Origin: Fidelibacterota bacterium UBA2242
GTDB taxonomy: Bacteria; Fidelibacterota; UBA2242
Direction: 5' to 3'
DNA: 64,000 nucleotides
NCBI GenBank assembly: GCA_002347855.1
Contig: DDYE01000009.1
Location: 90,265-154,264 of the forward strand
Made by a program: the position numbers and the translations under genes. Within the stretch, counting starts at the first letter, position 1. Every line of letters begins with the position of its first letter. Below, piece by piece: positions 10,266 through 55,120 of this stretch. The notes under the pieces were generated by a model. The model saw only the letters and a program-made list of their open reading frames with translations. It did not search any database and was not told the origin of the DNA.

Positions 10266-10348
10266 CTTTTGTTTCTTTAGTCGAGTTTAGCTAATTTTCA
10301 TTGTGATTTTATCATTATTTCAATTCAGAATAAGAAAAAGGAAATGAC

Positions 10349-11413
10349 ATGAAAGCCTTAATTACAGCGGGGGGACACGGTACGCGTTTGCGTCCCATTA
10401 CCCACACTCAAAACAAACACCTCATTCCGATTGCAAATAAGCCTATTTTGAACTATGCTCTTGAATATGTCCGCGATGCGGGAATTCGCGAAGTCGGCAT
10501 CATCACGAATAAGGAAGGGGGAGAAGTTAAAGAAGTCTATGGCGACGGCAGTGCCCTCGGCTTGCATATTACTTATATTCCCCAGGATACTCCGGCTGGG
10601 TTAGCCCATTGCGTTAAGATAGCGGAACCGTTTATCAAGGGAGAAACCTTCGTTTTTTATTTGGGTGATAATATAATCGTCGGCGGCATCAAGCGTTTCA
10701 TTGAGGAATTCGAGAAGAGCAATACGAACTGCCATTTAGTGCTTGCTAAAGTCCCCGATCCTGAGCGCTTCGGTGTGCCTGAAATTAAAGATGGTCGCAT
10801 TGTGAAAATTGTTGAAAAGCCCCAAAAACCAATGAGTGATTTTGCTGTGACTGGCATCTATATCTATGACAGCCATATTTTTGAAGCGGTAAACAATATT
10901 CAACCGAGTCCGCGCGGCGAACTGGAAATTTCCGATGCTCACCAATATCTTCTTGAGAAAGGATACCGCGTTACCTTTTCGGAAATCACCGGTTGGTGGA
11001 AGGATACTGGTAAACCCAATGACCTCTTAGAAGCCAATCGCTTAGTGTTAGATAATATCACGACTCGCATTGACGGCGAAGTGGATCAGGAGAGCAATGT
11101 TACCGGGCGGGTCATCATTGAAAAAGGCGCCAAAATTAGTAATAGTAACCTGCGGGGACCGATTATTATTGGCGCCGGCTCAAAAATCATCAACTCTTAT
11201 ATCGGTCCGTACACTTCTATTGATAAAAATTGCTTGATTGAAGCAACTGAAATTGAGTTTAGCATTATTTCCTCCGGTTGTGTAATCCAGAACCAGTCCA
11301 TTCGAATTGAAGCCAGTTTGCTGGGCAAAGATGTTCATATCTTGCGAGCTAATTCTAAACCACTTGTTAATCGCTTTATTGTTGGCGACCAAAGCCAAAT
11401 CGAGATTAGATAA
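10349..11413 (+). CDS. Sugar-phosphate nucleotidyltransferase (long RmlA-like, with C-terminal LbH domain)
   Basis: The N-terminus is AGGHGTRLRPIT..K and a hexapeptide-repeat C-terminus follows. An SD (AAGGAAA) precedes the ATG. Confidence 0.75.
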   Translation: MKALITAGGHGTRLRPITHTQNKHLIPIANKPILNYALEYVRDAGIREVGIITNKEGGEVKEVYGDGSALGLHITYIPQDTPAGLAHCVKIAEPFIKGETFVFYLGDNIIVGGIKRFIEEFEKSNTNCHLVLAKVPDPERFGVPEIKDGRIVKIVEKPQKPMSDFAVTGIYIYDSHIFEAVNNIQPSPRGELEISDAHQYLLEKGYRVTFSEITGWWKDTGKPNDLLEANRLVLDNITTRIDGEVDQESNVTGRVIIEKGAKISNSNLRGPIIIGAGSKIINSYIGPYTSIDKNCLIEATEIEFSIISSGCVIQNQSIRIEASLLGKDVHILRANSKPLVNRFIVGDQSQIEIR

Positions 11414-11415
11414 AA

Positions 11416-12714
11416 GTGATTCGTACGGTGGCAATTAAGACGCTGGGGTGTCGTCTCAATCAAGCTGAATCAGAAACTATACGTTTTGACTTGGAACAGC
11501 GTGGTCTACAGGTAGTGCAGGCTAACATGCCTGCCGATTTAGTTGTTATTAATTCTTGCGCCGTGACTCAGGCCGCGGAAGCCAAAATGCGTGGGGCAAT
11601 AGCAGCAGTGCGACGCACTGCACCCGACGCTCTTATTGCCGTAGTCGGTTGCGCTGCTTATCTTGGCGCCGAGCGTTTACGACAAATGCCCGCTGTCAAA
11701 TTGATTTTAGGTAATAGCGAGAAAAATAATCTCCCGCAGTATTTGCCCCGTGTAGAAGCCGGAGAAACCATCGTAGCGCTTGACGATTTAGAAGAGTCTC
11801 CGGCAGTATTTAAGCCGACTGATAAAAAATTGCACCCCGAACGGATTCGGGTGCTTTTAAAAGTTCAAGATGGTTGTGATTACCACTGCAGCTATTGCGT
11901 GGTTCCCCATCTGCGTGGTGAACCGCGTAGCCGTCCTTTGACTGAGTGTATATCCGAGGTCAAACAATTGGTAGCGCACGGTTGCCAGGAAGTTGTACTG
12001 ACAGGCATTAACCTTGGCTTGTACCAAACCGCCGAAGGTGACTTAACGACGCTTGTAGAGCGTATTTTAACCGAGACCGATTTGCCGCGTCTGCGCCTGA
12101 GCTCCATCGAGCCCGATTTAGTAACGCCACAGCTGATTACCTTAATGCGCTCAAATAATCGTCTCTGTCAACACTGGCATATCCCATTACAGTACGGCAC
12201 TGATGCCATTCTCCGTCAGATGCGGCGGCGTTACACGACGGCTTTCTATAGCGATTTAGTGCAGAGAATCAAAGATAATTTGCCGGCTGCCTGCGTGGGA
12301 GCAGATGTCATGGTGGGTTATCCTGGCGAGACCACCGAAGCATTTGAAGAAATGCGGGGCTTTTTACAAAAATTGGCTTTAGATTATCTGCATGTTTTTC
12401 GTTATTCGCCACGACCATACACGTCCTCCATTCAAAACCGCGAATCCATTACCAGCGCTGAGAAGAAAAGACGTTCACAAATTTTGATTAATCTGAGTGC
12501 CCAAAAACGACGCCACTTCCGATCGCAATTTATCGGTCAAATATTAACGATACTTTTTGAAGAGCAAGTCGGACCGATGGAATGGCAGGGGCTGAGTGGG
12601 AATTATCTAACAGTGCGCGTTTTTCATAAAGATAACTTGTTAAATAAAATATTTCAAGTTAGAATAATAGGTGAATCGGGAAATGTTTTAAAAGGAGAGA
12701 TTGTAAGTGAATAG
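11416..12714 (+). CDS. mtaB: tRNA t6A37 methylthiotransferase MtaB-like radical SAM enzyme
   Basis: It has an MTTase N-domain (IKTLGCRLNQAESE) and a radical-SAM motif (CDYHCSYC). It has a GTG start. Confidence 0.8.
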   Translation: MIRTVAIKTLGCRLNQAESETIRFDLEQRGLQVVQANMPADLVVINSCAVTQAAEAKMRGAIAAVRRTAPDALIAVVGCAAYLGAERLRQMPAVKLILGNSEKNNLPQYLPRVEAGETIVALDDLEESPAVFKPTDKKLHPERIRVLLKVQDGCDYHCSYCVVPHLRGEPRSRPLTECISEVKQLVAHGCQEVVLTGINLGLYQTAEGDLTTLVERILTETDLPRLRLSSIEPDLVTPQLITLMRSNNRLCQHWHIPLQYGTDAILRQMRRRYTTAFYSDLVQRIKDNLPAACVGADVMVGYPGETTEAFEEMRGFLQKLALDYLHVFRYSPRPYTSSIQNRESITSAEKKRRSQILINLSAQKRRHFRSQFIGQILTILFEEQVGPMEWQGLSGNYLTVRVFHKDNLLNKIFQVRIIGESGNVLKGEIVSE

Positions 12715-13330
12715 TCCGGTCTATTTTATCGGCGTAGCAGGCAATATCGGGGTAGGGAAAACGACCATGACTGACATCATTGCACGAAACTTTGGCTGGC
12801 GTGCCTATTATGAATCGGTCATTGACAATCCGTACCTCGAGGATTTCTACGCTGATATGCGCCAGTGGAGCTTTCATCTACAGGTTTATTTTTTATCGCA
12901 TCGTTTCAAGACCCACAAGCAGATGACCGAAAGCCCGATTTCGACGGTACAAGACCGCACAATATATGAGGATGTCGAAATCTTTGCTCGCAATCTCTAC
13001 GAAATGGGCTATATGAGCAAGCGCGATTGGGATAACTATAGTGCACTTTTCGAAATCATGACTTCTTATCTTAAACGCCCCGACCTGATAATTTATTTGC
13101 GAGCCAGCGTAGATACTCTATTGACCCGCATTAAGAAACGTTCACGCGGCTTTGAACGCGACATCTCTCCTGAATATATTTATCGTCTCAATCTTTCTTA
13201 TGAACGCTGGATTAAGAGAGAACAGGAAAAGAGTCCCGTTTTGATTGTCGAGACTGACCATTTTAATGTCTTCGAGGATTTAGACGAACTGGAAAATATT
13301 CTGCATAAAATCAGAACATATTGCCCATAA
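12707..13330 (+). CDS. Deoxynucleoside kinase
   Basis: The P-loop is GNIGVGKTT, and ERS and RDW motifs of the dNK family are present. It overlaps mtaB by 8 nt. Confidence 0.85.
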   Translation: MNSPVYFIGVAGNIGVGKTTMTDIIARNFGWRAYYESVIDNPYLEDFYADMRQWSFHLQVYFLSHRFKTHKQMTESPISTVQDRTIYEDVEIFARNLYEMGYMSKRDWDNYSALFEIMTSYLKRPDLIIYLRASVDTLLTRIKKRSRGFERDISPEYIYRLNLSYERWIKREQEKSPVLIVETDHFNVFEDLDELENILHKIRTYCP

Positions 13331-13488
13331 TAACTGTACTATCTTTTAGTCTTGTTAATGGGTTAAAACCTATTTTTAGAAGATGACCCATATCCCAATA
13401 CCCTCCCGCCCAGGCGGGACGAATGGCGGACAAGTTTCACGCGGGGCTACTTATTCCTCTTTATTTTTGGATTGCCGCGATTGAATAG

Positions 13489-13508
13489 CTACGGCTTTTA
13501 AGCCGTAG
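13489..13508. terminator. 8-bp stem / 4-nt loop hairpin between convergent genes
   Basis: Seen directly as ctacggct-ttta-agccgtag. A second GC hairpin lies at about 13404–13419. No clean U-tract follows either. Confidence 0.3.
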
Positions 13509-13513
13509 GTCAA

Positions 13514-14221
13514 TTAATAAAGAATGATAATTAAATCATAAAAAGTATGCGTATATGCGGTTATGCCATAGCCGCGCAAGGCATAAAGCGAGCCTAAGAA
13601 AATGCCGGCTGCCAGACGCACCGCTCCCGAACGCAGAGTAAAAGTTTCACCGTAAGGACCCAGATAGTGAAATAAGGTAAACAGCAAGGCTGCAATGATA
13701 ATTGCTAAACCAGTAGCAAGGGCGTTATTAAACCGCAAAATATTCGCCAGGAAAAAAGTCATGCCGGTCACTAAAATAACCCGGAAAATAAATTCTTCGT
13801 AAACTCCAGCGCCTAATGCCAGCACAATCTGAAATTTAAGGTTCGAGGGACCAATGACTAATCCGAATCGCCCAGCTTGCTGGACGACAAGATAGAAAAG
13901 AATGGCGTAAACGATGCTTTCCAGCAACATTAAGATAAAAAATTGACCGCGTAGGGCAAAGTGATGTCGCGAACGATAAGTGAAATAATAAGCCAATAGA
14001 AAAGCGCTTAGAATCACGAAACCGACGGCATAAAAGCCATAGATATTAAAAAGCCTAAAAATCTGGTGAAAAATTATATCGGCGCCATTCCGTAAACCTA
14101 AAATATCCGAATGGTTAAAAGAAAAAATCAAAATTTCATAGATTAACAGCAGTGGCAGCGTGATTACAATACTATAGAGTGGTGACTTAGACTGTTCCCA
14201 GTAGGATTTGAGAATAGACAT
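13514..14221 (-). CDS. CPBP family intramembrane metalloprotease (CAAX protease-like)
   Basis: It is polytopic, with EEFIFR (motif 1), FTLFHY (motif 2) and a later H. Confidence 0.75.
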   Translation of the reverse strand: MSILKSYWEQSKSPLYSIVITLPLLLIYEILIFSFNHSDILGLRNGADIIFHQIFRLFNIYGFYAVGFVILSAFLLAYYFTYRSRHHFALRGQFFILMLLESIVYAILFYLVVQQAGRFGLVIGPSNLKFQIVLALGAGVYEEFIFRVILVTGMTFFLANILRFNNALATGLAIIIAALLFTLFHYLGPYGETFTLRSGAVRLAAGIFLGSLYALRGYGITAYTHTFYDLIIILY

Positions 14222-14253
14222 GTTTTAGCAAGGATGAATGGTACGGGGTAGCA

Positions 14254-16050
14254 TCAATGTTCCATTTTCAGGACTGCAAGAAAAGCTTCCTGCGGTACTT
14301 CGACTTTGCCAATCTGTTTCATGCGACGCTTACCTTCTTTCTGCTTTTCGAGGAGTTTGCGTTTACGGGTGATGTCGCCGCCGTAGCATTTAGCGGTCAC
14401 GTTTTTCCGCAAGGGGCTTTTGACTTCACGGGCAATAACTCGGCTTCCGATTGCCGCTTGAATGACGACTTCAAAGAGTTGCTTGGGAATCAGCTCGCGC
14501 AGCTTGGCGCATAATGCCCGACCGTGTTGGTAGGCTTTGTCGCGATGTACTATGGCGGAAAGGGCGTCCACTGGTTCGCCGGAAATGAGAATATCCAGTT
14601 TGACTAGGTCGCCCTCGCGGAAACCAATTGGTTCATAATCGAAGGAGGCATATCCTCGTGAGACCGATTTAAGCCTATCATAGAAATTGAAAATTATTTC
14701 AGATAAAGGGAATTCGTAGTTTAGTTGGACTTTTTCAGCATCAAGATAGCGGGTATTTTTATAGATACCACGCTTCTCCTGACAGAGTTTGAGAATATTG
14801 CCAAGGTAAGTGGGGGGCGTAATTATTTCGGCTTTGACATATGGTTCGCGCAGGGTTTCTATTTCACCGATGGGTGGCATGCGGGAAGGGTTATCAACTT
14901 CGAGAATTTCTCCATTTTTCAGGATTACCTGAAAGCGCACATTGGGCATGGTCGTGACTAATTCCAGATTGAATTCCCGTTCCAGGCGCTCTTGCACAAT
15001 TTCCATGTGCAGCAAGCCGAGATAACCACAGCGAAAACCGAATCCCAGCGCGCTGGAAGTTTCGGGTTCATATACCAGCGAGCTATCGTTCAACCGCATT
15101 TTTTCCAGAGAAGAGCGCAGGTTTTCGTAGTCGTCGCTATCGACGGGATACATGCCACTGAAAACCATCGGCTTGACCACGCGATAGCCGGGGAGCGGTT
15201 CATGGGCAGGACTGTCTCTAAGAGTGATCGTATCGCCAACTTTGACCTTAGAAATATCCTTGACTCCGCCGATAATATAACCAACTTCACCGGAAGCCAG
15301 CTGGTCGGTCCGCTGGCGATGCATGCGAAAAACACCTACTTCGGAAACCTCGTAGCTCATATTACTGGCGAAAAAACGAATGTAATCGCCTGTTTTGACA
15401 ACTCCTTCAAAAATGCGCACATAAGGAATAGCGCCCCGGAATGAATCAAAAGTCGAATCGAAAATCAGGGCACGCAAGGGACTGGTCAAGTCAAGACATG
15501 GCGGCGGTATGCGCGTAATTATGGCTTCAACCAGGGCTTCGATTCCTATTCCACTCTTGGCACTTGTTAACAGAATTTCATCTTCCCGACAACCGATTAA
15601 ATCTATGATTTGACGACGAGTTTCGGGAATCCGTGCTCCCTGCAAGTCAATTTTATTAATGACTGGTATCAAGGTCAAATTGTGTTCAATCGCCAGATAG
15701 GCATTGCTTACGGTCTGGGCTTCCACGCCTTGCGTGGCGTCAACTAACAACAGGGCGCCTTCGCAAGCTGCCAAACTGCGTGAAACTTCATAAGAAAAAT
15801 CCACATGTCCAGGTGTGTCAATTAAGTTGAGAATATACTCACTGCCGTCAGGTGCGGTGTAATGCATCCGTACCGGGTGAGACTTGATGGTAATACCACG
15901 CTCGCGCTCGAGATCCATGTCGTCTAAGACCTGCTCTTTCATTTCGCGCTGGCTGATTGTACCGGTATACTCTAATAGACGGTCGGCTAAGGTTGATTTG
16001 CCGTGGTCGATATGGGCGATAATGCAGAAATTTCTAATATTCCTACTCAC
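14254..16050 (-). CDS. lepA: Elongation factor 4 (LepA)
   Basis: The N-terminus [22 protein letters not shown], GTPase motifs and the LepA C-terminal domain are present. Confidence 0.95.
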
Positions 16051-16253
16051 GGCGGTGAATTTAACTCTATATGTACAAGATTAACAAGACGAAGAGCAGG
16101 GAAATTATTAACTGCAGAGGACGCGGAGAGCGCGGAGATTTATTATTTCGCCCCAGATGGACACAGATTACTACAGATGTTTATCAAATAAGCGGGGCAT
16201 ATTAGGGAAAGGAATATGATTATCAAAATTGTCGTCGTGGGAATGAGGCTATA

Positions 16254-16832
16254 TTAACGATATAGCTTATGTTCTGTAATATATTGTGCTATTGCCTGTG
16301 GCACATAGCCTTCCAGTGATTGTCCTTGGCGAACCCTATTCCGAACCAAACTGGACGAAATGGGAGACATTTGATTTTTTAAAACTATAACCTGCTGCAG
16401 GAATTTAGGCTCTACTTTATCTAAATCGCATTCCGGTCGCTTTGCAATCACGACCTGCACAGAATTTAGAATGGCTTCTGGTTCGCGCCAGTTGGCGAAG
16501 TCCAGCAGACTGTCTGCGCCAATCAGGAGATAGTACTCGGCTTGGGGCTCTTGCGCTTTTAGAAAACGGATAGTGTCAATAGTATAGGAGATGCCTTCAC
16601 GCTCAATTTCGACCGTGTTGATACGAAAATGGGGATGTCCCGCGAGAGCAAGGCGCAGCATATTCAAGCGGTCTGCGGCAGTAGCATAAGTACGGTGACC
16701 TTTTTGAGGGGCGATATAGGCGGGAATGAAAAGCACTTCGTCTAATTGCAGCTCTTTCAGAAAAGATGTCGCGATGGTCAGATGTCCGTTATGCGGCGGA
16801 TCGAAGCTGCCACCGAATAAGCCGATTTTCAT
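16254..16832 (-). CDS. nadD: Nicotinate-nucleotide adenylyltransferase
   Basis: The N-terminus is GLFGGSFDPPHNGHL. Its start overlaps the bamD stop as ATGA. Confidence 0.9.
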   Translation of the reverse strand: MKIGLFGGSFDPPHNGHLTIATSFLKELQLDEVLFIPAYIAPQKGHRTYATAADRLNMLRLALAGHPHFRINTVEIEREGISYTIDTIRFLKAQEPQAEYYLLIGADSLLDFANWREPEAILNSVQVVIAKRPECDLDKVEPKFLQQVIVLKNQMSPISSSLVRNRVRQGQSLEGYVPQAIAQYITEHKLYR

Positions 16833-17632
16833 GGATTATTTTTCTTCAACTCTTTTTCGAGTTGCTTTTTTTCGCGATTGTAGGAAAGTTGCAAATACAC
16901 CATTTGTTCGGCAGGGATACGCTCTTTGTACTTGCTGTTGAGAATCTGGCGCACCTGTTCGTATTCATCGAAGCGCCGCAAGCGGATAAGGCAATAGGCT
17001 TTTTCCAGATAGGCTGGCAGGACCCAATCGGTGTCGTAATAGAGTTCAAGAACTTTATCGAAGTAAATGATGGCTGACTCCCACTCGCGCAGTTTGCGGT
17101 AGAGTCGTCCGCTTTCGAAAAGTTTTCGTCCTAAACGATTGCGGATTTCGATAATCATTTTTTCAGCAGCAGGACGATATTTGCTATTGGAATAAGTTTC
17201 AACAAAATCCTGAAAACTCTGCAAAGCCTTCAAGGTATATTCCTGGTCAAGTTGATATTGAGGCGCATTTTTAAATTGCGAGAGCGCGATTTTGTAACTG
17301 GCATCTTCGACTAGCGAGCTATACGGATAGCGCTCCGTCAATTTCTGATACTCGGCAATGGCTAAAAGATACTCTTTGCGATTGAAATAACATTCACCAA
17401 TATAAAATTGGGCATCATCGGCTAAATCACTGCCTGGATTATTGAGCACGACCAGAGTGAAATATTCAATGGCTTTGTCCCATTTTTTCTTATTGAAAGC
17501 CTCGGTTCCCTTTTGATAGGTTTTATTGAAATCAGTCACAATTTTCGGCTGATTGCTCGAACAGCTCGTCATTATCAATATCAGATAAATTAGACTCGTC
17601 AGGCTAATTTTTTCCAGAAGACTATTTTTCAT
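16829..17632 (-). CDS. bamD: Outer membrane protein assembly factor BamD-like TPR lipoprotein
   Basis: It has a lipoprotein signal (LILIMTSCSS) and YfiO/BamD-like TPRs (DDAQFYIGECYFNRKEY..AIAEYQKL). Confidence 0.8.
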   Translation of the reverse strand: MKNSLLEKISLTSLIYLILIMTSCSSNQPKIVTDFNKTYQKGTEAFNKKKWDKAIEYFTLVVLNNPGSDLADDAQFYIGECYFNRKEYLLAIAEYQKLTERYPYSSLVEDASYKIALSQFKNAPQYQLDQEYTLKALQSFQDFVETYSNSKYRPAAEKMIIEIRNRLGRKLFESGRLYRKLREWESAIIYFDKVLELYYDTDWVLPAYLEKAYCLIRLRRFDEYEQVRQILNSKYKERIPAEQMVYLQLSYNREKKQLEKELKKNNP

Positions 17633-17673
17633 GCTGCTACTTTCTAAAAACTTTGAGAGACGATGACAATTGG

Positions 17674-18585
17674 CTAAAACGAGAGGGAGACATTAATTCC
17701 CCGAATTGGATAGCGATAACGGTAATCGGCGACTAAGTCTAATGACCAGCTGACAGACTTGCTTTCCGGTGGACGATAATGTTTGGCAGCAATCTGAGCA
17801 TGAAAGGCGCTAATAAGATGGTTAAACATGATTACCGTAGCGAAATTGGTCGCCATTTTCAATGCCTGATTCGATTTGTAGCGGTCATTGAGATATTTAT
17901 TGCGTTCAGGGCTATTCTTGACCGGTTCAATCTGGGTAGTATCTACATAATCAGTGGAAAAATCATCCCAGCCAGTCGCAAATTGGTCATACTTGCCGAT
18001 ATTTTCATAAAAATCGCGCGTACGTATCGGGCGCAAGGTCTGCTGTTCAAAGGGTAAATCCTTTTCGTTGGCGAGAATGCTTGCCCAGGTAGGTATGTAA
18101 AGGTTAAGGGTATCCTCATGAGCAGGATATTCCATCCCATTATATTCAATCCAGATGGAATGGGAACCAAAGCCTTTGCGCGTCAAGCCAAATAAATCTG
18201 GATAAGTCAAGCTATTAGCGTACCAGTTCCACAAACTCCAATGATTATTGGCAAAGTGCTTATAACTTTTTTCGATTTTATTACCGGTACTTTTTTGATT
18301 GAAGTAAACAGCCCATGAGATAGCCTCGACGCTGGCAAAAGCAATGGCGCGATAGCGGGCGCCAGCATAAAATTCACCTGCACCTGGAATCGCTGCCGAT
18401 AGCAAAAAGGCTACGCCCGGTGATTTGGCATAATTGAATTCGAAAGTATCAGATTGCACTTGGGCATAACGCAAATTATAGAGTAAGCGTTCCCGTGTAG
18501 TGGCATCGTCCTTGTCCCAGCCACCGAGTTGTTGCGAAAATGCTAAGTAAGGGATGAAAATCGCGAATAATAAACGTGATTTCAT
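17674..18585 (-). CDS. Secreted protein, DUF5683-like (SAxIPGAGEFY motif)
   Basis: A signal peptide starts at MKSRLLFAIF. A strong SD (AAGGAGG) lies 5 nt upstream of ATG 18585 and overlaps the stop of the upstream gene. The protein ends in F. The DUF assignment is from memory. Confidence 0.4.
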   Translation of the reverse strand: MKSRLLFAIFIPYLAFSQQLGGWDKDDATTRERLLYNLRYAQVQSDTFEFNYAKSPGVAFLLSAAIPGAGEFYAGARYRAIAFASVEAISWAVYFNQKSTGNKIEKSYKHFANNHWSLWNWYANSLTYPDLFGLTRKGFGSHSIWIEYNGMEYPAHEDTLNLYIPTWASILANEKDLPFEQQTLRPIRTRDFYENIGKYDQFATGWDDFSTDYVDTTQIEPVKNSPERNKYLNDRYKSNQALKMATNFATVIMFNHLISAFHAQIAAKHYRPPESKSVSWSLDLVADYRYRYPIRGINVSLSF

Positions 18586-18595
18586 AGCGCCTCCT

Positions 18596-21500
18596 TTATA
18601 GTCCAAATAAAATAGTTAAATAAGTCTGCCATTCTTTGCCGTAGCGATGAGCTTTTCCCTGGCGGTCTGTCAGATCGAACTGATCGAGACCATAGACAAA
18701 ATCCCAGCTGATAGCGGTTGGGTAAGCATAGAAGGAAAAGCCACTCAGGCGGAGCTGCACGCCGGCATCGCGTTTAAAATCACCTACTATCCGGCGGGTT
18801 ATTTTTAATGGATTTGTACTGATATCGCTCAACTGCACTTTTGGATACCCTCTAACTCCATTCCAGGCGTTTCCGGCTTCAATATAAAAACCAAGGAAGG
18901 CATTTTGCAAATTAAAAGATAACAAGGGAAAAGATTTTTCTCGAAAAAGCGGCACCCGCCAGGTATATTGTCCTATCAAGAGGTTGCGCCCTTCGATGCT
19001 ATAATAGGGATAGCCTTTTAATCCATCCAGCCCACCGGCAAAGAAGTAGAAAAAGGAATCAACATCCGGTTTGGAAATAAAGCCCCATCGCCAATGCAAA
19101 TTGCCCGTCAAATTCTTTATCAAAGGATATTTGTGGTACCAATCGCCAGTTTGTTCAATACGCCAGTAGTAGTTTTTACGAAAGTCCACATTGAGTGTGC
19201 TGTAGGCTTGGTTGGTACTAAAGCCGCGAATGAATTGGTCATAATTGCGGGCAACGAGCGTATTGACGACAATGCCGTTGTCGGGATTGGTTTCGGCATT
19301 GATACTTGGCAGAGTGGTATTGTGCTGCCATAGCATCTTAAAATTCAGTCCCCGATAGTAGTCGTAAGAAAAGCCATTCTGGTAAATAGCCTGAGAGGGA
19401 ATGCGTTCGTTGGTTGAGGTCCTATATTTAGCGAAAGAAACATCAAAACGAAGGCGATTGACGCCCGACACTGGCAGCGCCATTCCCAAATCAGCTTCGC
19501 TCAGATAATAGGTGTAATCCAGTTCAGCAGGGTAACTATTAATCGTTTCTTTTATATTCTTGATATGCCGACTAAGGTTATAAAGTTCGATGTAGAAAGT
19601 CGGATACCACTGGCGATATTCGAGAATAGTGAACAAGTCGCGGTCAAAGTATTGATTGACGGCGGCACCGCCGAAAATATTAAAGCGGTTGAGAATTTCT
19701 GAAGAATAAAAGTAGAACCCCGGTTTGGCTTTTTTATAATCCCACATTAGGCGCGGCAGGAAAAAAAGACGGGCAAACTGCTCCTTATAAGGTTCAGCCT
19801 GTGTCACAGTGACTTCGGGCGCAGGTAGGAGCCCGGGATTAGTCGCAGGTTGGCGATTGTAAGTGGCATTCTGTAAGTCGAGAGATTGTGGGTTTTTTAT
19901 CAAGCTGATTTTGAAAGCAGTGTCGTCAAAAAGCACATAGGCTAATTCGCCCGCGCTATTGACAGCCGGCATAAAAGCCCCGCCGAGGACATTGGTCACT
20001 AATTCTTTTTCGCCAGAAATCAGGTTCAGGCGATAGAGATTAAAAATGCCAGTCTCATCGGAAGAATAGTAGAGCCACTTGCCGTCGGGACTGAAGAAGG
20101 GATGGCGCGTATCGCAATCACTCTCATTCCGATAGATGATTGAGTCGCAACTCAGGTCATAAAGCGCTAAATTGCGTCCGTGACTGACTAAGTAATCGAA
20201 GGCAATTAAGCGTCCATCAGGTGACCAGCTGGCAGTAAAGACTTGGGTACCGTCGGTAAAATGAGTGAGATTGCGCTTGCTTTTATTTTCTAAGTTATAC
20301 ATCACCAGATTGGAAGTGCCATCGCGTCCCGTGATGTAAACTAATTCCTTTCCATTGGGTGCCAGGGCAGGGTTATATGCTCTGGCTTCTTTTGTCAAAC
20401 GTTCTTCTTTTCGGCGCCGCAAATCGTAGCGATAGAGGTCATAAAAAATTGAACCACGGCGATTAGGACGACTGGGACGGGAGTAGTAAATATAACGACC
20501 ATCGGGAGAAAGCGAAAGGCTGGAATTGACCCGCGCCACGAGGCGTTTAGTTTTGCCGCTGCGCCGGTCAAAACGAAAAAGCGCCGTCTGTGAAAAGTAG
20601 TCACGCCCTTCGTTGGATACATAATAAAGGCAGCTATCACCACTCCAGGTAGGATAAAACTGAGTGCTGCCTTTTTGCAGTAACACTTCGCCAGCGAAAA
20701 CGTGAGGCTTTATAAAACGAGTGAGCTCGGCATAATGCTTATCAAGATACTGCCCCCACTCTTGATAAAGCAGGTCGCCCGGAGAAGCCGTGGCGCCTTT
20801 CATTGCCGAGCTCACTGAATATTGGTTTGGTTTTGCAAGCTCTGCCGCCAGTTTTGAAAGAACATCAGTACCAAATCTGTTACTAATATAATATACAAAA
20901 GAAAAACCTAAATTGTAAACACTTTCGTTACCAATTCCTCTTTTTCCGAATGATCCCATCTCGGAAAAGGTCAATAATTTTTTATGCAAAACCCGATCAC
21001 GCAACAACATATCGCGGTGCGAGTCCCAGTAATCGTTGGGATTGCCAGGATACATATACTGCGCCATGCCTTCTGCCAACCACATCGGAATAACTAAACC
21101 CGGAACCGGGTAGGAACAAATAATTCTCGGATAACCGTAAATTACATCCTGTCGCTTTTCTTTTTCGTAATCAATCATTTGCAGGTAAAAGCCGGGGATT
21201 GCGCGCCCAAACTTCATGGCTTTCTGCAAGGAAACGATATGGGTAAACTCGTGGGTGATGACATCTCTTAGCCAGCTGTGACTGCCGCGCATCGGGAAAT
21301 CAAGAGGCGTTGCCCAGATTTCGATTTTGTTGTCATAGTAGTAAGCCGCTCCGTTAGAGATGTCGTCCGTATCTTTAATAATGAGCGCGGTTTTTTCGCG
21401 CGGCGCAAAATTATAAAAATTGGTAACCGGTCCATAAATAGCTTCGGCAATGCGGGCGCTTTCATAAGCCGTCCATTCCGTGCCTTCATGATAATGCACT

Positions 21501-21634
21501 TTGAAATGCGCAGTTTCAAAGGTCAACCATTTCAGCTCGGGATGATTGAATTCACTAAATTGGGCAAAAGCCCCCTGAAAGATACCTAACAGCAACCAGC
21601 AGAATAAAAAAAATTTATGCGGCGTAATAAACAT
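18596..21634 (-). CDS. Secreted zinc-metallopeptidase-like (HEFTH) protein fused to TolB/PD40-like beta-propeller repeats
   Basis: The HExxH motif is at nt 21239–21253, with a downstream Glu-rich MA-clan-like region. There are multiple SPDG(R/K)..Y PD40-like repeats. The start is taken at the Met that gives a signal peptide (MFITPHKFFLFCWLLLGIFQGAFA), whose ATG overlaps the upstream stop as TAATG. The 6-frame ORF runs to 21739. Confidence 0.6.
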   Translation of the reverse strand: MFITPHKFFLFCWLLLGIFQGAFAQFSEFNHPELKWLTFETAHFKVHYHEGTEWTAYESARIAEAIYGPVTNFYNFAPREKTALIIKDTDDISNGAAYYYDNKIEIWATPLDFPMRGSHSWLRDVITHEFTHIVSLQKAMKFGRAIPGFYLQMIDYEKEKRQDVIYGYPRIICSYPVPGLVIPMWLAEGMAQYMYPGNPNDYWDSHRDMLLRDRVLHKKLLTFSEMGSFGKRGIGNESVYNLGFSFVYYISNRFGTDVLSKLAAELAKPNQYSVSSAMKGATASPGDLLYQEWGQYLDKHYAELTRFIKPHVFAGEVLLQKGSTQFYPTWSGDSCLYYVSNEGRDYFSQTALFRFDRRSGKTKRLVARVNSSLSLSPDGRYIYYSRPSRPNRRGSIFYDLYRYDLRRRKEERLTKEARAYNPALAPNGKELVYITGRDGTSNLVMYNLENKSKRNLTHFTDGTQVFTASWSPDGRLIAFDYLVSHGRNLALYDLSCDSIIYRNESDCDTRHPFFSPDGKWLYYSSDETGIFNLYRLNLISGEKELVTNVLGGAFMPAVNSAGELAYVLFDDTAFKISLIKNPQSLDLQNATYNRQPATNPGLLPAPEVTVTQAEPYKEQFARLFFLPRLMWDYKKAKPGFYFYSSEILNRFNIFGGAAVNQYFDRDLFTILEYRQWYPTFYIELYNLSRHIKNIKETINSYPAELDYTYYLSEADLGMALPVSGVNRLRFDVSFAKYRTSTNERIPSQAIYQNGFSYDYYRGLNFKMLWQHNTTLPSINAETNPDNGIVVNTLVARNYDQFIRGFSTNQAYSTLNVDFRKNYYWRIEQTGDWYHKYPLIKNLTGNLHWRWGFISKPDVDSFFYFFAGGLDGLKGYPYYSIEGRNLLIGQYTWRVPLFREKSFPLLSFNLQNAFLGFYIEAGNAWNGVRGYPKVQLSDISTNPLKITRRIVGDFKRDAGVQLRLSGFSFYAYPTAISWDFVYGLDQFDLTDRQGKAHRYGKEWQTYLTILFGL

Positions 21635-24600
21635 TATTTGATGACGATAATTTTGATGATTTTTATGTCGGTCTGCGCTCCAACACTGGCTTTGACCACA
21701 GCGAAATAGACCCCGCTCTTTATCTCTCCGACATACCATTCTTTTTCGTTGAAATCACCACTGCGGGGATGATTGTCTTCGAAAGAAGTGATTAAGTCGC
21801 CGGCTAAGTCGTAAATATCGATGTTGATTTTGCACGAAGAATTAACAAAGTAACGAATAAAAGTACGATTATCGCGAGCCGGATTGGGCCAGTTAAAAGT
21901 CAATTCATGATTGAGCAAGCCCTTGGCATTTTTACCCGAGGTGATTGGTAAAACAGGATAAAAGTAGCGCCGGCTGGCATTGCCTCCCTGACAAACCCAG
22001 TCCGTGCTTGTCAGTGCCGCCGCCGCTAAGAGCGCGCCACCAATCTGGCGATAATCAGACTGCCCGATTGGCTGAGTGGCGCCCAGCAAAAGCTGTCCAC
22101 CGGCTGAATTGATTAAAATTCCCGAACCAGCACGCGGCTGGACAAAATTCAGGGGGAAATTAGCAATTAGTCTGCCCTGCTTGTTGAAAGCAACAACGCC
22201 CCTTTGGGTTGTCAGCAAAACGTCCTTGATGCCATCACCGTCAAGGTCGCTTAAACAAAGGTTGCTACTGAATTCGTCGCCTTTTAAAATGTTGGGCAAG
22301 CTAATCGGGAAATTGTATTTGAACTTTAAATCCTGGTTAAAAGCGTAAACCGCATTGGCGTCGTAGGCGATAATTTCGTTTTTACCATCACCGTCAATAT
22401 CCGCACAGGCTAAGTCACCGCTTAGAACGATATTCCGGGTGATGGTTTTTTGACTTTCATCAATGTCAAAAATTATTTCTAAATGTCCATTATAGTAATG
22501 AATTATATCAGGAAGCTCATTGCCGTCAATAAATGCCAGTAAATGTTCACCCTGACCGAGATTTGCCGATTGCCCCAGGGAAGTAATGCCGAAGGGCTGC
22601 GGCTGAATTCTAAGCAGCTCATTGGCGTCGGTGATGCCGTATAAAAAGGTAGAATCACCTAAAAAACGTGCGATAGGAGCAGACAAATACACCGATTGGA
22701 CGGAGGAGGATTGCGGCAAGTAATAGCCCAATTCGTATTGCTTGACATCCGTTGCCAGAACACAATATATGATGCCCTTGCCAATGGGAAGTGGTTGACC
22801 ATACAGGTTTTTTTTCTGCCAATTGGTCTGTGCTAAAACCTGCCATTTGCCGTTGGAATCAATCTGCCAGGTGGTAATAGTGAGGTCATCGCCCGGTTGC
22901 GGTTGGAAGCCGGTGATTTGAGAGCCATTAATGGCATAAGTCGTGTTGGCGACGGCGGTGGAAAGCAAATACCCTTCGTCATTGAATATATAAGCGCTAT
23001 CAGCGCAAACTAAAAAAGCGTCGGGAATCCTATTCATATTTAGGGAAAGTGGTAAAAGATGCGTGATAGTAGTCGGGAAATTGAGAGGAAAATTTTCCGG
23101 TGTAGTTGCTCGCCTGATCTGAAAATACATGACCATACCTGCCGGACCAATACTGTCAATGCTGACCCCGGTGTAAAGATAGGCGTTGGTAGTTGTAGCG
23201 GGATTAGTGAAAGGAGTGAAGCCCACATGTTGCGCGGCGTCGCGCGGATAATCAGGATTCAAGTGGAAAAAGCCTTCATTACCGGCAAACCACGGGTCGA
23301 AATACCAACCAATGTTGATATTTGCTCCTAAGATACCGGTGTCGTAACCTAAATCCTGTGCGCCATCACCTTCTTCGAGATCAACACCGCGGTAGTTGCG
23401 GTTGATATTGACTTGGTTCTTGGCGAGATTGCTTTGGATAATTGATTCGTCAATGTGCCAGATGAGGAGACCGGAACCGGGCAATCCGTAATCATATTTG
23501 GGAACACTAAGCATAACCCCTGTTTGGGGAGAAAAGACTGCTCGCAGGGAGTCACGCAGAAGCGGAAAAAGGGATGGCCAGGTTTGACTGGGGCTTTGTA
23601 GATAAAGCCGATATTGAATGCTATCTAAACTAACACCAGGTCGCACATGCGCACAGCGATTTTCGATTAAAAAGTATTCAGAAGCATTTAAAGTCACTTT
23701 CCAAATAGTAGTATCGGAACCGGATTCGATTTCAGGCAGGTGAATTGTAGCGCTATTCGGTGACTCGATTGGTTCTTCCCATCCCATGAAAAAGCGTTCC
23801 CAGGCAGATGGTACCGCGGGCACCAAGCCATTGAGGTTGGCTGAGCCCTGGTCCATGAGCCCAAATTTCCCAATACCGGTTGTGCCAGTCTGGGTATCGT
23901 AAAGAGCTGGTAATCCCAAATAAAACCCGAAAATAAAGGCGAAGGTACCATTTAACCCAATCTGGTATTCGCAAGGTGTTGCTGCTGAACCAAAAACTTC
24001 CTGCCAATTGTCAAAAAGCAGATGATTTTGCGTTTCCGGCAAAATTAGACCACGGTCGAGATGATAATTACCTTTTTCGACCGCAATACCGAAAAAATCA
24101 GGATCATCCGGAGCCAGCAGGTTTTTCAAGTCAGTGCGGTTAATGAAAACCGAGGGAATATCATAAGGCGTTGGATCGAGAAAAAGGTCGAAGTCCTGCC
24201 CGACCCCCGCGTGAAAAACGACCACTACATCATATTGACGGAAATCTACTTCAGAATCAGCAGCTTGGATAGCATCATAAAATAGCTCCGCTAAGCGTAA
24301 ATCAATCGAGTCTTTCTGTAAAAAAGGATGATAATAAGCCATCCGGTGCGGCACGGTATAGGTCGAATCGTCTTGTATGGGAAAAACCTGCGAATTAACT
24401 GTGTCAATGGTTACTTTGCCATGGGAAACTTTGGAATAGTAATTGTTTAACGCGCGCAAATGGTCAATGAAATAGGCGCGATTATGGGGCGGTGGATCAA
24501 TTACAAAATCAGAACAGGGTGTATTCGTGTCATTTAGAAATTGACCATTGCCAGTTGTTCCAGGGTCTGCATCGCTCGGAAAGCTGACTCGTAATGCGCA

Positions 24601-24738
24601 GATTTTCAAATTTGTAGTAGTAGTGACACTCGCACGGCTCTTTTTATGATAAAAGTTGGGTTTTATAGATTCGGCGCCCTGCGTAAGAGTCGCCAGAAAA
24701 GTCAGAACACTAATGAAGATTAAGGAGGATTTTGGCAT
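21634..24738 (-). CDS. T9SS C-terminal sorting domain cargo protein with FG-GAP/VCBS-like repeats and N-terminal peptidase-like domain
   Basis: The C-terminal ~88 aa (NWPNPARDNRTFIRYF..IDIYDLAGDLITSF..SGVYFAVVKA..KIIKIIVIK) match the Por secretion tail pattern. FG-GAP-like motifs are present (DIDGDGKNEII, DLDGDGIKDVLL). The start is taken at ATG 24738, which gives the signal peptide MPKSSLIFISVLTFLATLTQGA; the ORF extends to TTG 24777. Confidence 0.7.
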   Translation of the reverse strand: MPKSSLIFISVLTFLATLTQGAESIKPNFYHKKSRASVTTTTNLKICALRVSFPSDADPGTTGNGQFLNDTNTPCSDFVIDPPPHNRAYFIDHLRALNNYYSKVSHGKVTIDTVNSQVFPIQDDSTYTVPHRMAYYHPFLQKDSIDLRLAELFYDAIQAADSEVDFRQYDVVVVFHAGVGQDFDLFLDPTPYDIPSVFINRTDLKNLLAPDDPDFFGIAVEKGNYHLDRGLILPETQNHLLFDNWQEVFGSAATPCEYQIGLNGTFAFIFGFYLGLPALYDTQTGTTGIGKFGLMDQGSANLNGLVPAVPSAWERFFMGWEEPIESPNSATIHLPEIESGSDTTIWKVTLNASEYFLIENRCAHVRPGVSLDSIQYRLYLQSPSQTWPSLFPLLRDSLRAVFSPQTGVMLSVPKYDYGLPGSGLLIWHIDESIIQSNLAKNQVNINRNYRGVDLEEGDGAQDLGYDTGILGANINIGWYFDPWFAGNEGFFHLNPDYPRDAAQHVGFTPFTNPATTTNAYLYTGVSIDSIGPAGMVMYFQIRRATTPENFPLNFPTTITHLLPLSLNMNRIPDAFLVCADSAYIFNDEGYLLSTAVANTTYAINGSQITGFQPQPGDDLTITTWQIDSNGKWQVLAQTNWQKKNLYGQPLPIGKGIIYCVLATDVKQYELGYYLPQSSSVQSVYLSAPIARFLGDSTFLYGITDANELLRIQPQPFGITSLGQSANLGQGEHLLAFIDGNELPDIIHYYNGHLEIIFDIDESQKTITRNIVLSGDLACADIDGDGKNEIIAYDANAVYAFNQDLKFKYNFPISLPNILKGDEFSSNLCLSDLDGDGIKDVLLTTQRGVVAFNKQGRLIANFPLNFVQPRAGSGILINSAGGQLLLGATQPIGQSDYRQIGGALLAAAALTSTDWVCQGGNASRRYFYPVLPITSGKNAKGLLNHELTFNWPNPARDNRTFIRYFVNSSCKINIDIYDLAGDLITSFEDNHPRSGDFNEKEWYVGEIKSGVYFAVVKASVGAQTDIKIIKIIVIK

Positions 24739-24790
24739 CAGATCTTTTTTGATTTGAGGTATCGTTAGAGTGGTCAAACTCAGAGCATTA

Positions 24791-26014
24791 TCAGAATTTT
24801 ATATTAAGGGAAAACAACATAGTATTCTGCCGCGGGTGACCGGCTTCGCCTGCAGTGTAGCCGAAATCGAAGCCCAAGCCTGCCCAGCGTAAACCGGCTC
24901 CAAAAGTCGGCACCGGAAGATTATTTTTCATGACAATCTTCCCGATTTTGTCATAGATACATCCCACCCGAATGGCAAACAGGTCGGAATACCAGTATTC
25001 GATGCCAAAATTGTGTACTAATTTCTCGAATTCTCTTTTCAGAGAGCCGTCGTTGGTATTGCCGTCCTCATCGTTAGCACCTATGCCATCCGAAGCGGAA
25101 TCGTAGGTCAATAGCCAATCATCAATCCACGAAGTGAAGATGCCTTTGTACCAGTCATCAGAATAAGCCGTTTCGCGTTGTCCTTTTTTATTGTAATCGC
25201 CGCCGGCTATGCGATGACCATCGGCATCATAGCCGCCCACTTTGCCATCGCCGTCAATATCACGGTCAGGGTAAGAAGCCACGAGGAGTTTATTGACGTC
25301 GTAGGCAATGGTCACGCGGTTATATTCGCCGCCTAAGGTATAGCTGAGACCAAACTTAAGATTAGTTGGCATGGGGTCAGCCTGCGAAACATCGATAAAG
25401 GCGATTTTCGGTCCGATATTAGCAATCGTGGCGCCCATAGTCAAATTTCTTAACAGGAATTGCTTCTTTAGATAGCCGACATCAAAGCAAAAGTTGGTCG
25501 AAGTTCCCTTCCCTTTTTCATGACCGGCGCCGCGGTCGGTAAGATGTTGGTGAACCATTTTGACATTGACGCCTAAGGATGAATTGCGGGTCAGAGCTGT
25601 CCCATAGGATGCTGTTACCGCCATCATATAAGAGCTAAAATCTCCTAAATAATTGCCGCGCTCATCCATACGAGCTTGTTCTCCCAGGTTCATCAAAATG
25701 ATATTGCCACCCAAAGTCCCGACGTCTTTTAAAAATTGCCGATAGCTCACGAATTCGTAGTACATATCGGAAGCCAGATTTGGTAACCAGTTGGTATGCG
25801 TCAAACCGGCTTCGCGTCCCCGCAGGAAACCCAAGCCAGCTGGATTATAGTAGGTAGCGTAGGCGTCGTCGGTAAAACCGGCACCGGCTTCGCCCATACC
25901 GCAGTACCGTGCCCCGGGATTGATTAAAAGCCAGACCGCACCAGCCTCACTCTGGGAGTAAGCCATCAAAGTCATACTCAATATTAAAAGCGATATGCTC
26001 AAAAATCTATGCAT
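24791..26014 (-). CDS. PorV/PorQ/PorP-superfamily (FadL-like) outer-membrane beta-barrel
   Basis: It has a signal peptide, GARYCGMGEAGAG and YYNPAGLG motifs like T9SS shuttle proteins, and a C-terminal Phe (NIKF). A strong SD (AGGAGG) precedes the ATG. Confidence 0.55.
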   Translation of the reverse strand: MHRFLSISLLILSMTLMAYSQSEAGAVWLLINPGARYCGMGEAGAGFTDDAYATYYNPAGLGFLRGREAGLTHTNWLPNLASDMYYEFVSYRQFLKDVGTLGGNIILMNLGEQARMDERGNYLGDFSSYMMAVTASYGTALTRNSSLGVNVKMVHQHLTDRGAGHEKGKGTSTNFCFDVGYLKKQFLLRNLTMGATIANIGPKIAFIDVSQADPMPTNLKFGLSYTLGGEYNRVTIAYDVNKLLVASYPDRDIDGDGKVGGYDADGHRIAGGDYNKKGQRETAYSDDWYKGIFTSWIDDWLLTYDSASDGIGANDEDGNTNDGSLKREFEKLVHNFGIEYWYSDLFAIRVGCIYDKIGKIVMKNNLPVPTFGAGLRWAGLGFDFGYTAGEAGHPRQNTMLFSLNIKF

Positions 26015-26155
26015 CTATTCCTCCTGACAAACGAATAATATATTGCTCTCTAAATATACGCAAACGTTGATATATGTAGTACTATTGAAAAAAGATAGGT
26101 TGTAACAATTAGAAGATTGTCGGTCCCCCTGTGCTTATATGGTAAAAACAGGCGC

Positions 26156-26320
26156 TCAAAATTTCTGTGCCTCCTCGACAAGCATGATGGGAATATCGTC
26201 TTCGATTGCATATATTAATCGGCAATTCGAGCAGATTAATTTCTGATTTTCGGCGTCGTAGGTCAGTTCGCCTTTACATTGTGGACAGACTAAGATTTCG
26301 AGTAGGTCTTGACTTAACAT
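26156..26320 (-). CDS. Trm112/UPF0434 family small zinc-ribbon protein (54 aa)
   Basis: It is not in the ORF track because it is under 60 aa. I translated it as MLSQDLLEILVCPQCKGELTYDAENQKLICSNCRLIYAIEDDIPIMLVEEAQKF, which is a classic Trm112 sequence (LLEILVCP.CKG.L, C.NC...Y.I.DGIP.ML). Confidence 0.75.
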   Translation of the reverse strand: MLSQDLLEILVCPQCKGELTYDAENQKLICSNCRLIYAIEDDIPIMLVEEAQKF

Positions 26321-26411
26321 TGGTTTCCCATTTCTTTAATATCTAAAAGTCCTCTTTGCATTGCATAGTTTTCCTACCTGTAGAATGGCAAAAAGTTCCA
26401 ATTGATTTACC

Positions 26412-26861
26412 TTAATTGTTGAGTTGCGCGATATGGTCACGGAATTCATCTAAGTCCTTGAATTTTTTATAGACTGACGCAAAACGGATATAGGCGACCT
26501 CGTCAAGCTGCCGCAGTTTTTGCATCACTAATTCCCCAATCTGGCTGGAACGGACTTCACCGCCAGCGTGTTCTTCAATTTCTTTTTCGATGTCCATCAC
26601 CAGCATTTCAAGTTTTTCCCGAGGAATAGGGCGTTTATTACAGGCAATTTTGATACTATTGAGCAATTTAGTGCGGTCATACTCTTCGCGCCGACCATCA
26701 TTTTTTATGACCTGAAGGGGGTATTCGACGACATATTCATAGGTGGTAAAACGATGCCCACAATCAAGGCATTCTCGGCGCCGACGAATAGCATTATTTT
26801 TTTGCGCAGTGCGTGAATCTATCACTTTTGTATCTCGCGAGTTGCAAAAAGGGCACTTCAT
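26412..26861 (-). CDS. nrdR: Transcriptional repressor NrdR
   Basis: It has a zinc ribbon (MKCPFCNSRDTKVIDSR..C.DCGHRFTTYE) and an ATP-cone. Confidence 0.9.
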   Translation of the reverse strand: MKCPFCNSRDTKVIDSRTAQKNNAIRRRRECLDCGHRFTTYEYVVEYPLQVIKNDGRREEYDRTKLLNSIKIACNKRPIPREKLEMLVMDIEKEIEEHAGGEVRSSQIGELVMQKLRQLDEVAYIRFASVYKKFKDLDEFRDHIAQLNN

Positions 26862-28174: not shown

Positions 28175-28615
28175 CTATTCCTCCAGAGCCTGAATTTTCT
28201 TAATCCGTCTGAGATGACGTTCTTCACCTGAAAAAGAGGTAGTGAGCCATAATTGGAGATATTCTTTGGCTTTTTCTGGTAAAATAAAATCGGCACCGAA
28301 ACAGAGCACATTTGAATCATTATGCTGACGACTTAAAGTGACGACCTGGGGATTGTAGGCAATTGCTGCCCGGACGCCATGTATTTTATTGGCCGATATG
28401 CACATTCCGATGCCAGTGCGGCAAATCAGGACTCCATAATCGGCAGTTCGGGACTGAATAGCAGTACCTACAGCTTGGGCGAAGTCTGGATAATCAACCG
28501 GGTTATCTGAATCGGTGCCTGCATCCAGGACGGTATGCCCGAGCTGCTGGGCAAATGCGCTAAGCTGCTTTTTCAGGTTCACACCACCGTGATCAGCACC
28601 AAAAATGATACGCAT
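28175..28615 (-). CDS. rpiB: Ribose-5-phosphate isomerase B
   Basis: The N-terminus is MRIIFGADHGG, it is RpiB/LacAB sized, and the stop abuts the glyA start. Confidence 0.9.
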   Translation of the reverse strand: MRIIFGADHGGVNLKKQLSAFAQQLGHTVLDAGTDSDNPVDYPDFAQAVGTAIQSRTADYGVLICRTGIGMCISANKIHGVRAAIAYNPQVVTLSRQHNDSNVLCFGADFILPEKAKEYLQLWLTTSFSGEERHLRRIKKIQALEE

Positions 28616-54215: not shown

Positions 54216-54238
54216 GCCGTACCTTTTTACTAATCAAT

Positions 54239-55117: not shown

Positions 55118-55120
55118 TTT

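Follow-up and report, generated by a model that had tools for sequence, protein, structure and literature searches.

Bacteria of the Fibrobacterota-Chlorobiota-Bacteroidota (FCB) group are known to carry unusual components in their outer-membrane machines. Two 2025 structure papers on the machinery for beta-barrel assembly (BAM) name BamA, D, G, H, M, P and BamG-K, and BamP provides a precedent for a small periplasmic protein able to insert a segment into the BamA barrel (PMC12611786). In addition, the WD40-Omp85 subfamily was defined by Heinz & Lithgow in 2014 and likened to a BamA-BamB fusion (PMC4104836). For DUF5683 proteins, a name that turned up in no relevant paper, no function is described within the literature that we searched on DUF5683/PF18935, on PorV2/PorU2 and on type IX secretion (the T9SS) in Marinimicrobia. 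Here we analyzed a stretch of 64,000 nucleotides from Fidelibacterota bacterium UBA2242 (assembly GCA_002347855.1, contig DDYE01000009.1, positions 90,265 to 154,264), hereafter the window, in which an open reading frame (ORF) for an exported DUF5683-like protein lies after the genes of a PorV-family T9SS shuttle, of an inactivated M6-like metalloprotease with a T9SS C-terminal sorting domain (CTD), hereafter M6i, and of an Omp85-family barrel protein, and before bamD and nadD. The original prediction, made from the sequence of the window, had proposed that BamD and the T9SS-type components form a lineage-specific BAM/secretion accessory set. The operon packing and the link to bamD within the phylum stand; the DUF5683-like protein bears no resemblance to solved BAM or T9SS chains, and its invariant neighbors are PorV and M6i. 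We consider it somewhat more probable than the opposite that the DUF5683-like protein belongs to a PorV-M6i-Omp85 module, as a subunit or adaptor that is associated with the outer membrane and faces the periplasm, a proposal in which we infer localization, partners and activity.

We read the protein as a subunit of this module because its constant companions are PorV, M6i and nearly always an Omp85 paralogue, not BamD. When 185,579 species genomes were scanned using the family alignment, 570 encoded relatives emerged; the 80 best loci were retrieved together with flanks of 10 kb, the proteins of the window were mapped onto them by tblastn and ORF boundaries were then located. PorV and the M6-like CTD protein were found upstream of the DUF5683-like gene in all 54 loci whose upstream sequence extends to 7.5 kb or more. 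The Omp85-like gene adjoins the DUF5683-like gene in 55 of 65 loci, at a median gap of 10 nt, and most of the remaining 10 carry a POTRA-bearing Omp85 paralogue and an NHL propeller two to three genes downstream, with PorU ahead of PorV (7 Zixibacteria/Ignavibacteria loci seen). A module composed of PorV, M6i, an Omp85-family barrel with a propeller and the DUF5683-like gene, in one or two copies, is conserved in at least six lineages of the FCB group. With the same gene order present in dozens of independent genomes, where the ORF has only 29-64% identity, the arrangement is not a chance juxtaposition. Among more distant members, P0119 (25% identity) is preceded by PorV, an FG-GAP protein and a PD40 protein, and P0114 is followed by YfiO and NadD. 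One contig with a full Marinimicrobia-type cluster (L009, JBAZPA010000026.1, and P0013) is deposited as 'MAG: archaeon', which is probably a binning or labelling error.

A larger type of cluster was observed in Zixibacteria and relatives (L042, L050, L054, L055, L057 and L071; e.g. L050:82-17459) and in Ignavibacteria (L051 and L076). There, a PorU sortase (NF033707, 687 bits) is followed by a PorV with an N-terminal extension of ~550 residues, M6i, one or two copies of the DUF5683-like gene, an NHL propeller, a protein of ~1100 aa with no family match (a weak 17-bit match to SprA) and a POTRA-bearing Omp85 paralogue (TIGR03303, 99 bits for a cut-off of 297), after which come UbiA, MoxR and DUF58 genes. 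The peptidase-propeller-barrel form of the Omp85-like gene is absent from these clusters. The idea that the ~1100-aa neighbor represents the peptidase-propeller part split off from it was ruled out by hhalign (E=0.46). Taken together, the module thus comes with a propeller and an Omp85 paralogue, in one or other of two architectures, in nearly all lineages seen. In lineages other than Marinimicrobia, tandem duplication of the DUF5683-like gene is frequent (L046, L063, L064, L067, L068, L070, L072 and others, at ~9800-11450). Both paralogues have a signal peptide and a C-terminal strand ending in F or W, and their pairing suggests that the two copies form a heteromer.

The gene directly upstream of the DUF5683-like gene in the window, previously described as 'HExxH-propeller', encodes an Omp85-family protein without POTRA domains. 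It consists of a signal peptide, an HExxH (MA-clan) peptidase domain (residues ~30-305), a TolB-like beta-propeller (~315-580) and a 16-stranded BamA-like barrel (~624-1010). The AlphaFold2 (AF2) model, computed with 72 sequences, reached a predicted local distance difference test (pLDDT) of 90.4 and a predicted template modelling score (pTM) of 0.88, with 16 long strands in residues 624-1010, and Foldseek matched this model to TolB (1.8e-11) and to the barrel of E. coli BamA (6fsu, 3.8e-8, TM 0.54-0.56). Alignment by hhalign with the Omp85/POTRA genes of the Zixibacteria loci (E=0.0032) paired FFAGGLxGLKGY with IGGFxSLRGY, in agreement with the GG..L[KR]GY hallmark of loop 6. PF01103 is on record for the homologues P0216, P0219, P0222 and P0232 and was undetected by the Pfam scan in the window protein itself. 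The peptidase domain has a weak match to Peptidase_MA_2; given that H128, E129 and H132 are invariant in the 72 sequences, it is predicted to be probably active. By the usual Omp85 topology, the N-terminal domains would face the periplasm. This barrel, which had been missed, is a better basis for a 'BAM-like' theme than the adjacency of BamD. The window holds a further Omp85-family gene at 44188-49952 (plus strand), where tamB (1307 aa, PF04357) precedes a TamA-like Omp85 (614 aa, 3 POTRA).

The first gene of the cluster encodes a member of the PorV family (NF033709 PorV_fam, 239.7 bits for a cut-off of 90; PF19572, 79.5 bits), which scores 178 bits with the PorV equivalog NF033710, under the cut-off of 250. 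The alternative that this gene encodes BamG, which is also FadL-like, was ruled out, as the sole match in a sequence search of the PDB was the PorV of Flavobacterium johnsoniae (6h3i_F, E=1.3e-21, residues 8-407). The second protein matches NF052323 (T9SSA_dep_M6i) over its full length with 545 bits, just under the equivalog cut-off of 600, and has a sorting domain at residues 963-1042 (TIGR04183, 32.4 bits, cut-off 23; PF18962, 27.4, cut-off 27). Its zinc site is lost, FAFIFGFYLGLP standing in place of HExxH. The retention of M6i beside PorV in every locus examined, despite this loss, suggests a structural or binding role over proteolysis. By analogy, a PorV-family barrel paired with a CTD/propeller protein is reminiscent of PorV-PorU and PorQ-PorZ, two pairs known from the literature on P. 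gingivalis (Porphyromonas gingivalis).

The link to bamD, on which the accessory-set proposal was built, is specific to one lineage. By its sequence, the window bamD encodes a genuine BamD, as had been stated: the protein scores 151.3 bits with TIGR03302 (cut-off 81.4) and 77.8 with PF13525 (cut-off 25), it has a lipobox (..IMTS↓C), and its best PDB matches are Rhodothermus YfiO (3qky, 8e-32), the BamA-BamD fusion 5efr and the BamD chain 9n2d_F (3e-22). BamD-NadD directly follow the DUF5683-like gene in 56 of the 76 loci having enough downstream sequence, including one (L028) in which BamD overlaps the DUF5683-like gene by 1 nt. All of the 56 whose record names a phylum belong to Marinimicrobia/Neomarinimicrobiota/Fidelibacterota, and the identity of the DUF5683-like protein falls as low as 29-30% among them. 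The median gap from the DUF5683-like gene to bamD is 18 nt (50 nt or less in 46 of 59) and that from bamD to nadD is -4 nt (54 loci). Promoters or terminators separating these genes in homologous loci had been named as evidence that would refute the accessory-set proposal; in 60 loci, the stretch between the DUF5683-like gene and bamD contains no terminator-like hairpin. Within the window, a scan of 13300-26600 detected 27 sigma-70-type promoter sites versus 24.8 in shuffles and 19 terminator sites versus 14.3, both at shuffle level; a weak hairpin with a 5-bp stem (17702-17686) lies within the 3' end of the DUF5683-like ORF, and the Bacteroidota-type promoter pattern TTTG..TAnnTTTG does not occur across the cluster. 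The short gaps, the lack of terminator-like hairpins and the shuffle-level sites make co-transcription plausible within the phylum. In Marinimicrobia/Fidelibacterota, bamD and nadD form a housekeeping pair at the 3' end of the operon and are probably co-transcribed with it.

The DUF5683-like protein could instead be a lineage-specific BAM accessory subunit working with BamD and BamA, in the manner of BamG/H/P, with the operon coupling BAM to the T9SS. Such a role would account for the adjacency of BamD in 56 of 56 informative Marinimicrobia-type loci, at a median gap of 18 nt and with no terminator-like hairpin between, for the Omp85-family barrel encoded directly upstream, for the Omp85/POTRA paralogue that the Zixibacteria/Ignavibacteria clusters also contain and for the C-terminus resembling a beta-signal (see below); moreover, extra subunits occur in the Bacteroidota BAM and are common to FCB phyla (PMC12611786). 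However, we consider it unlikely. BamD is adjacent in 0 of 20 loci of other FCB lineages that keep the DUF5683-like gene, those with a lineage on record being 7 Zixibacteria, 2 Ignavibacteria, 2 Latescibacterota, 1 KSB1 and 1 Caldithrix, so that co-location with bamD in relatives is seen in the Marinimicrobia-type loci and not in the five other lineages. The tblastn matches to BamD found 7-8 kb away in KSB1-type loci are weak TPR matches (56-60 bits) on the opposite strand, in ORFs of ~1000 aa, and were not counted as BamD. Furthermore, the Omp85 proteins of the module are paralogues rather than canonical BamA, as illustrated by the low TIGR03303 score of the Zixibacteria one, the DUF5683-like protein has no sequence or fold similarity to solved Bacteroidota BAM chains or to other PDB entries, and none of the proteins identified in published pull-downs of BamA (BamD, G, H, M, P and I-K) is described as DUF5683. 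The bamD link does not define the function of the DUF5683-like protein.

On sequence grounds, this protein is a divergent member of DUF5683, as had been suspected from its hairpin motif. Its own match to PF18935 is marginal (E=0.051, 14 bits for a gathering score of 26.7), aligning residues 54-111 with profile positions 3-60 of 151. The homologue search returned 131 relatives, the named ones being Marinimicrobia/Neomarinimicrobiota/Fidelibacterota or Zixibacteria. PF18935 was matched by 88 of the 109 homologues scanned singly (E<=1e-3; best 4.8e-13), and 5 of 10 homologues tested individually passed the gathering score. In Zixibacteria members and in the second paralogue, the match covers profile positions 3-113 or 4-144 of 151 and extends over ~180 residues; since these matches span the profile around an insertion, the proteins can be described as DUF5683 members that carry a large insertion. 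Their number is sizeable: a profile search of 1.84 billion cluster representatives (50% identity) gave 699 with E<=1e-30, and 2002 when the threshold was E<=1e-10. A search with the 109-sequence profile aimed at canonical Bacteroidota DUF5683 gave, among the matches listed, only the same subfamily, and none of the NCBIfam models of T9SS components matches the DUF5683-like protein.

The anatomy of the protein offers some indication of its location. A signal peptide (residues 1-19, MKSRLLFAIFIPYLAFS↓QQ) is followed by the hairpin motif SAAIPGAGEFYAG at residues 63-75, in whose turn S63, P67, G68 and G70 are invariant and Y73 is kept in at least 90% of 109 sequences. An A-x-A↓Q-type signal-peptidase site ends the signal peptide in 46 of the 109 sequences; Gln at +1 is typical for exported proteins in this bacterial group. 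In the alignments of both 26 and 109 sequences, the inserted head contains an invariant YENIGKYDQF..GW motif (Y193, E194, G197, K198, Y199, G205 and W206), and Y231, N255 and S259 are further invariant positions. The AF2 model obtained with the 109-sequence alignment (pLDDT 85.9, pTM 0.73, residues 50-270 above 90) consists of short helices at 56-65 and 69-73, a 39-residue helix (77-115), the head (~116-225), a 41-residue helix (226-266) and a C-terminal hairpin (279-302). Three segments lean towards the hydrophobic, with mean Kyte-Doolittle values of 0.66-0.85 and best 19-residue windows, family-wide, of 1.07 and 1.29, which is below what is usual for inner-membrane helices. The protein ends in ...INVSLSF, with Phe 303 as its last residue. 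In the last strand, hydrophobic residues alternate at 0, -2, -4 and -6 (consensus [IV][RP]G[LV]xLS[VLI]x[FW]) and the final residue is aromatic in 103 of 109 sequences, a pattern that we take to resemble the C-terminal beta-signal of outer-membrane proteins; PorV of the same operon terminates in ...FSLNIKF. A structure prediction of the protein, counted as 304 aa, had been recommended; the AF2 fold is unlike any solved BAM or T9SS chain: the best Foldseek match of the model in the PDB has E=3.1, with no similar solved structure, and the family profile gave 0 matches at E<=1 among PDB sequences, the solved Bacteroidota BAM and T9SS complexes included.

Such an outer-membrane-like last strand might also point to a self-sufficient oligomeric outer-membrane protein, in which several copies or paralogue heteromers each contribute a C-terminal hairpin to a small barrel or pore, the helical domains are periplasmic and the neighbors merely share envelope regulation. 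The aromatic last residue, the poor definition of the hairpin in the monomer model and the tandem paralogues, which suggest hetero-oligomers, agree with this possibility. Nevertheless, we regard it as quite improbable, since two strands per chain would require at least 6 chains for closure and the strict retention of the gene next to PorV and M6i argues for a partner-dependent role. Still more doubtful is an inner-membrane protein of three or four helices (an uncleaved N-terminal anchor, the hairpin and helix 243-266) with a head function unrelated to its neighbors and an accidental gene order, to which one may be led by the three hydrophobic-leaning helices and the hydrophobic N-terminal segment, by the Arg/Lys residues that flank the hairpin turn and come after helix 243-266, and by the similar PGxGQ hairpins that occur in small inner-membrane proteins. 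Against it stand the hydrophobicity of the helices, under the usual transmembrane threshold, the conserved polar or charged residues within them (E86, N255, H256 and S259), the A-x-A↓Q-type sites, the conserved beta-signal-like C-terminus, left unexplained if it were cytoplasmic, and the conservation of the context across phyla.

We therefore return to the DUF5683-like protein as a subunit or adaptor of the PorV-M6i-Omp85 module. In the mechanism that we propose, the protein would be exported by Sec and its signal peptide cleaved (..AFS↓QQ). The mature protein would comprise a base of three moderately hydrophobic helices, the first two of which form the S-x3-PGxGE-x-Y hairpin, a two-helix stalk, the head and an amphipathic C-terminal beta-hairpin. 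This beta-signal-like hairpin might hold the protein at the outer membrane, by adding a strand to a partner barrel or through oligomerization, with stalk and head located in the periplasm. Together with the Omp85 paralogue, the protein may help to assemble or anchor the PorV-M6i surface complex or to control its quality, and bamD would be a passenger or a recruit of the operon, specific to the lineage. Several points weigh against this proposal. The window protein itself falls below the Pfam cut-off for DUF5683; confidence in the model is lowest at the C-terminal hairpin (pLDDT 57-72); with no solved relative of the fold, nothing can be transferred from known structures; and the gene order among related phyla could be partly inherited, not selected.

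We also envisage, as a tentative extension that is rather unlikely as it stands, that DUF5683 proteins in general might be outer-membrane-anchored subunits of a so far unrecognized FCB-wide machine composed of a PorV shuttle, a dead M6-like surface protein and a protease-propeller-barrel Omp85, in which the hairpin would dock in a partner barrel and to which BamD would have been recruited in Marinimicrobia/Fidelibacterota. If this were true, such a machine would directly connect insertion or quality control of the Omp85 type with type IX secretion, and DUF5683 and WD40-Omp85 would gain a first function. What is new, within the literature searched, is the fixed combination across FCB lineages; its parts (DUF5683, PorV, CTD cargo, WD40-Omp85 and BamD) are of known kinds. 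DUF5683 and the POTRA-less 'WD40-Omp85' barrels are widespread families, to which this combination gives a first functional context, together with a testable hypothesis on how FCB bacteria build or police a protein-rich surface.

The genes of the cluster, from PorV to NadD, are all on the minus strand of the window (Table 1), and the six are tightly spaced, with operon-like packing. The sequence features reported in the original prediction (the signal peptide, the hairpin motif, the C-terminal Phe, the Shine-Dalgarno sequence, the gap to bamD and the overlap with nadD) were confirmed in every detail, as was the co-directional chain of PorV, CTD cargo, HExxH-propeller, DUF5683-like, BamD, NadD and LepA, on whose assignments Pfam and NCBIfam agree. 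The TTG-extended form of the DUF5683-like ORF spans 17674-18606; the ATG at 18585 gives a product of 303 aa, in agreement with public gene calls. AAGGAGG, which overlaps the stop codon (TAA, 18596-18598) of the Omp85-like gene, ends 4 nt ahead of this ATG. The start of bamD lies 41 nt past the stop codon of the DUF5683-like ORF, the ATG of nadD (16832-16830) and the TGA of bamD share the sequence ATGA, and lepA is the next gene beyond nadD, after a gap of 203 nt.

Table 1. Features of the PorV to NadD cluster (positions in the window) and parts of the DUF5683-like protein (residue numbers).
Feature	Position	Strand	Evidence or remark
PorV-family 14-strand outer-membrane protein (T9SS shuttle)	24791-26014	-	NF033709, PF19572; leads the cluster
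T9SS cargo: M6-like inactivated metalloprotease, FG-GAP repeats, type A C-terminal sorting domain	21634-24738	-	NF052323, TIGR04183, PF18962
Omp85-family protein, 1012 aa: HExxH peptidase, PD40 propeller, barrel	18596-21634	-	AF2, Foldseek, hhalign
Shine-Dalgarno AAGGAGG of the DUF5683-like gene	18590-18596	-	sequence inspection
DUF5683-like exported protein, 303 aa	17674-18585	-	PF18935 homologues, AF2
BamD lipoprotein	16829-17632	-	TIGR03302, PF13525
NadD, nicotinate-nucleotide adenylyltransferase	16254-16832	-	TIGR00482, 189.7 bits (cut-off 112)
DUF5683-like protein, helical hairpin	55-93		
DUF5683-like protein, stalk helices	94-115 and 226-242		
DUF5683-like protein, head	116-225		
DUF5683-like protein, helix	243-266		
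DUF5683-like protein, beta-hairpin	279-302		

Other loci of the window were noted in passing. On the plus strand, ORFs of the size of MoxR/DUF58 (53223-55117) are followed by a weak BatD-like match (55121-56083) and then, up to 60724, by genes for an ABC transporter, its auxiliary component (PF09822, GldG-like) and DUF4340; the whole run (53223-60724) resembles the Bat and the gliding-associated GldA/F/G clusters of Bacteroidota. On the minus strand, 29906-32352 holds a pair of neighboring ORFs (402 and 413 aa) that gave no match in Pfam; the first has a signal peptide. They are flanked by TPR proteins, one adjoining (28615-29892) and one a gene further on (33160-34041, a weak YfiO/TPR_6 match, possibly CpoB-like).

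Comparison with known systems helps to place the module. The Pfam family DUF5683 (PF18935), typified by Bacteroidota proteins, has in common with the window family an N-terminal signal peptide, a helical hairpin of the S-x3-PGxG-[EQ]-x-Y type and, further on, a long helix. However, the window family is ~300 aa long rather than a 151-position domain, and an alpha/beta head of ~110 residues is inserted between the hairpin and the last helix. The Omp85-like protein of the window fits the WD40-Omp85 subfamily in that it has a propeller, here TolB-like, in place of POTRA before a 16-strand Omp85 barrel, but it possesses an additional N-terminal HExxH peptidase whose site is intact and invariant, and a neighborhood with PorV, M6i and DUF5683 is not reported in that paper (PMC4104836).

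BepA is a periplasmic M48/TPR metalloprotease and chaperone that works at BAM. A periplasmic zinc-protease module at an Omp85 machine would be common to both systems, suggesting, by analogy only, that outer-membrane or surface proteins undergo quality control; BepA is a protein in its own right, whereas the peptidase of the window forms a single chain with the barrel and comes from another family. With the T9SS attachment complex, the module has in common a PorV-family barrel paired with a CTD-bearing propeller protein, and a bona fide PorU precedes it in Zixibacteria. In contrast to that complex, the CTD protein of the module is an inactivated M6-like protease, not PorZ, and an Omp85 paralogue, undescribed in the Bacteroidota T9SS, is included. 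Finally, the BAM accessory subunits of Bacteroidota (BamG, H, M and P in F. johnsoniae, BamG-K in Bacteroides thetaiotaomicron and P. gingivalis) are likewise lineage-specific FCB envelope proteins linked to an Omp85 barrel and BamD. The DUF5683-like gene differs from them in that its bamD linkage is limited to one phylum and the adjoining Omp85 is a POTRA-less paralogue, not BamA. Our study extends the recent finding of unusual extra parts in the outer-membrane biogenesis machines of FCB bacteria.

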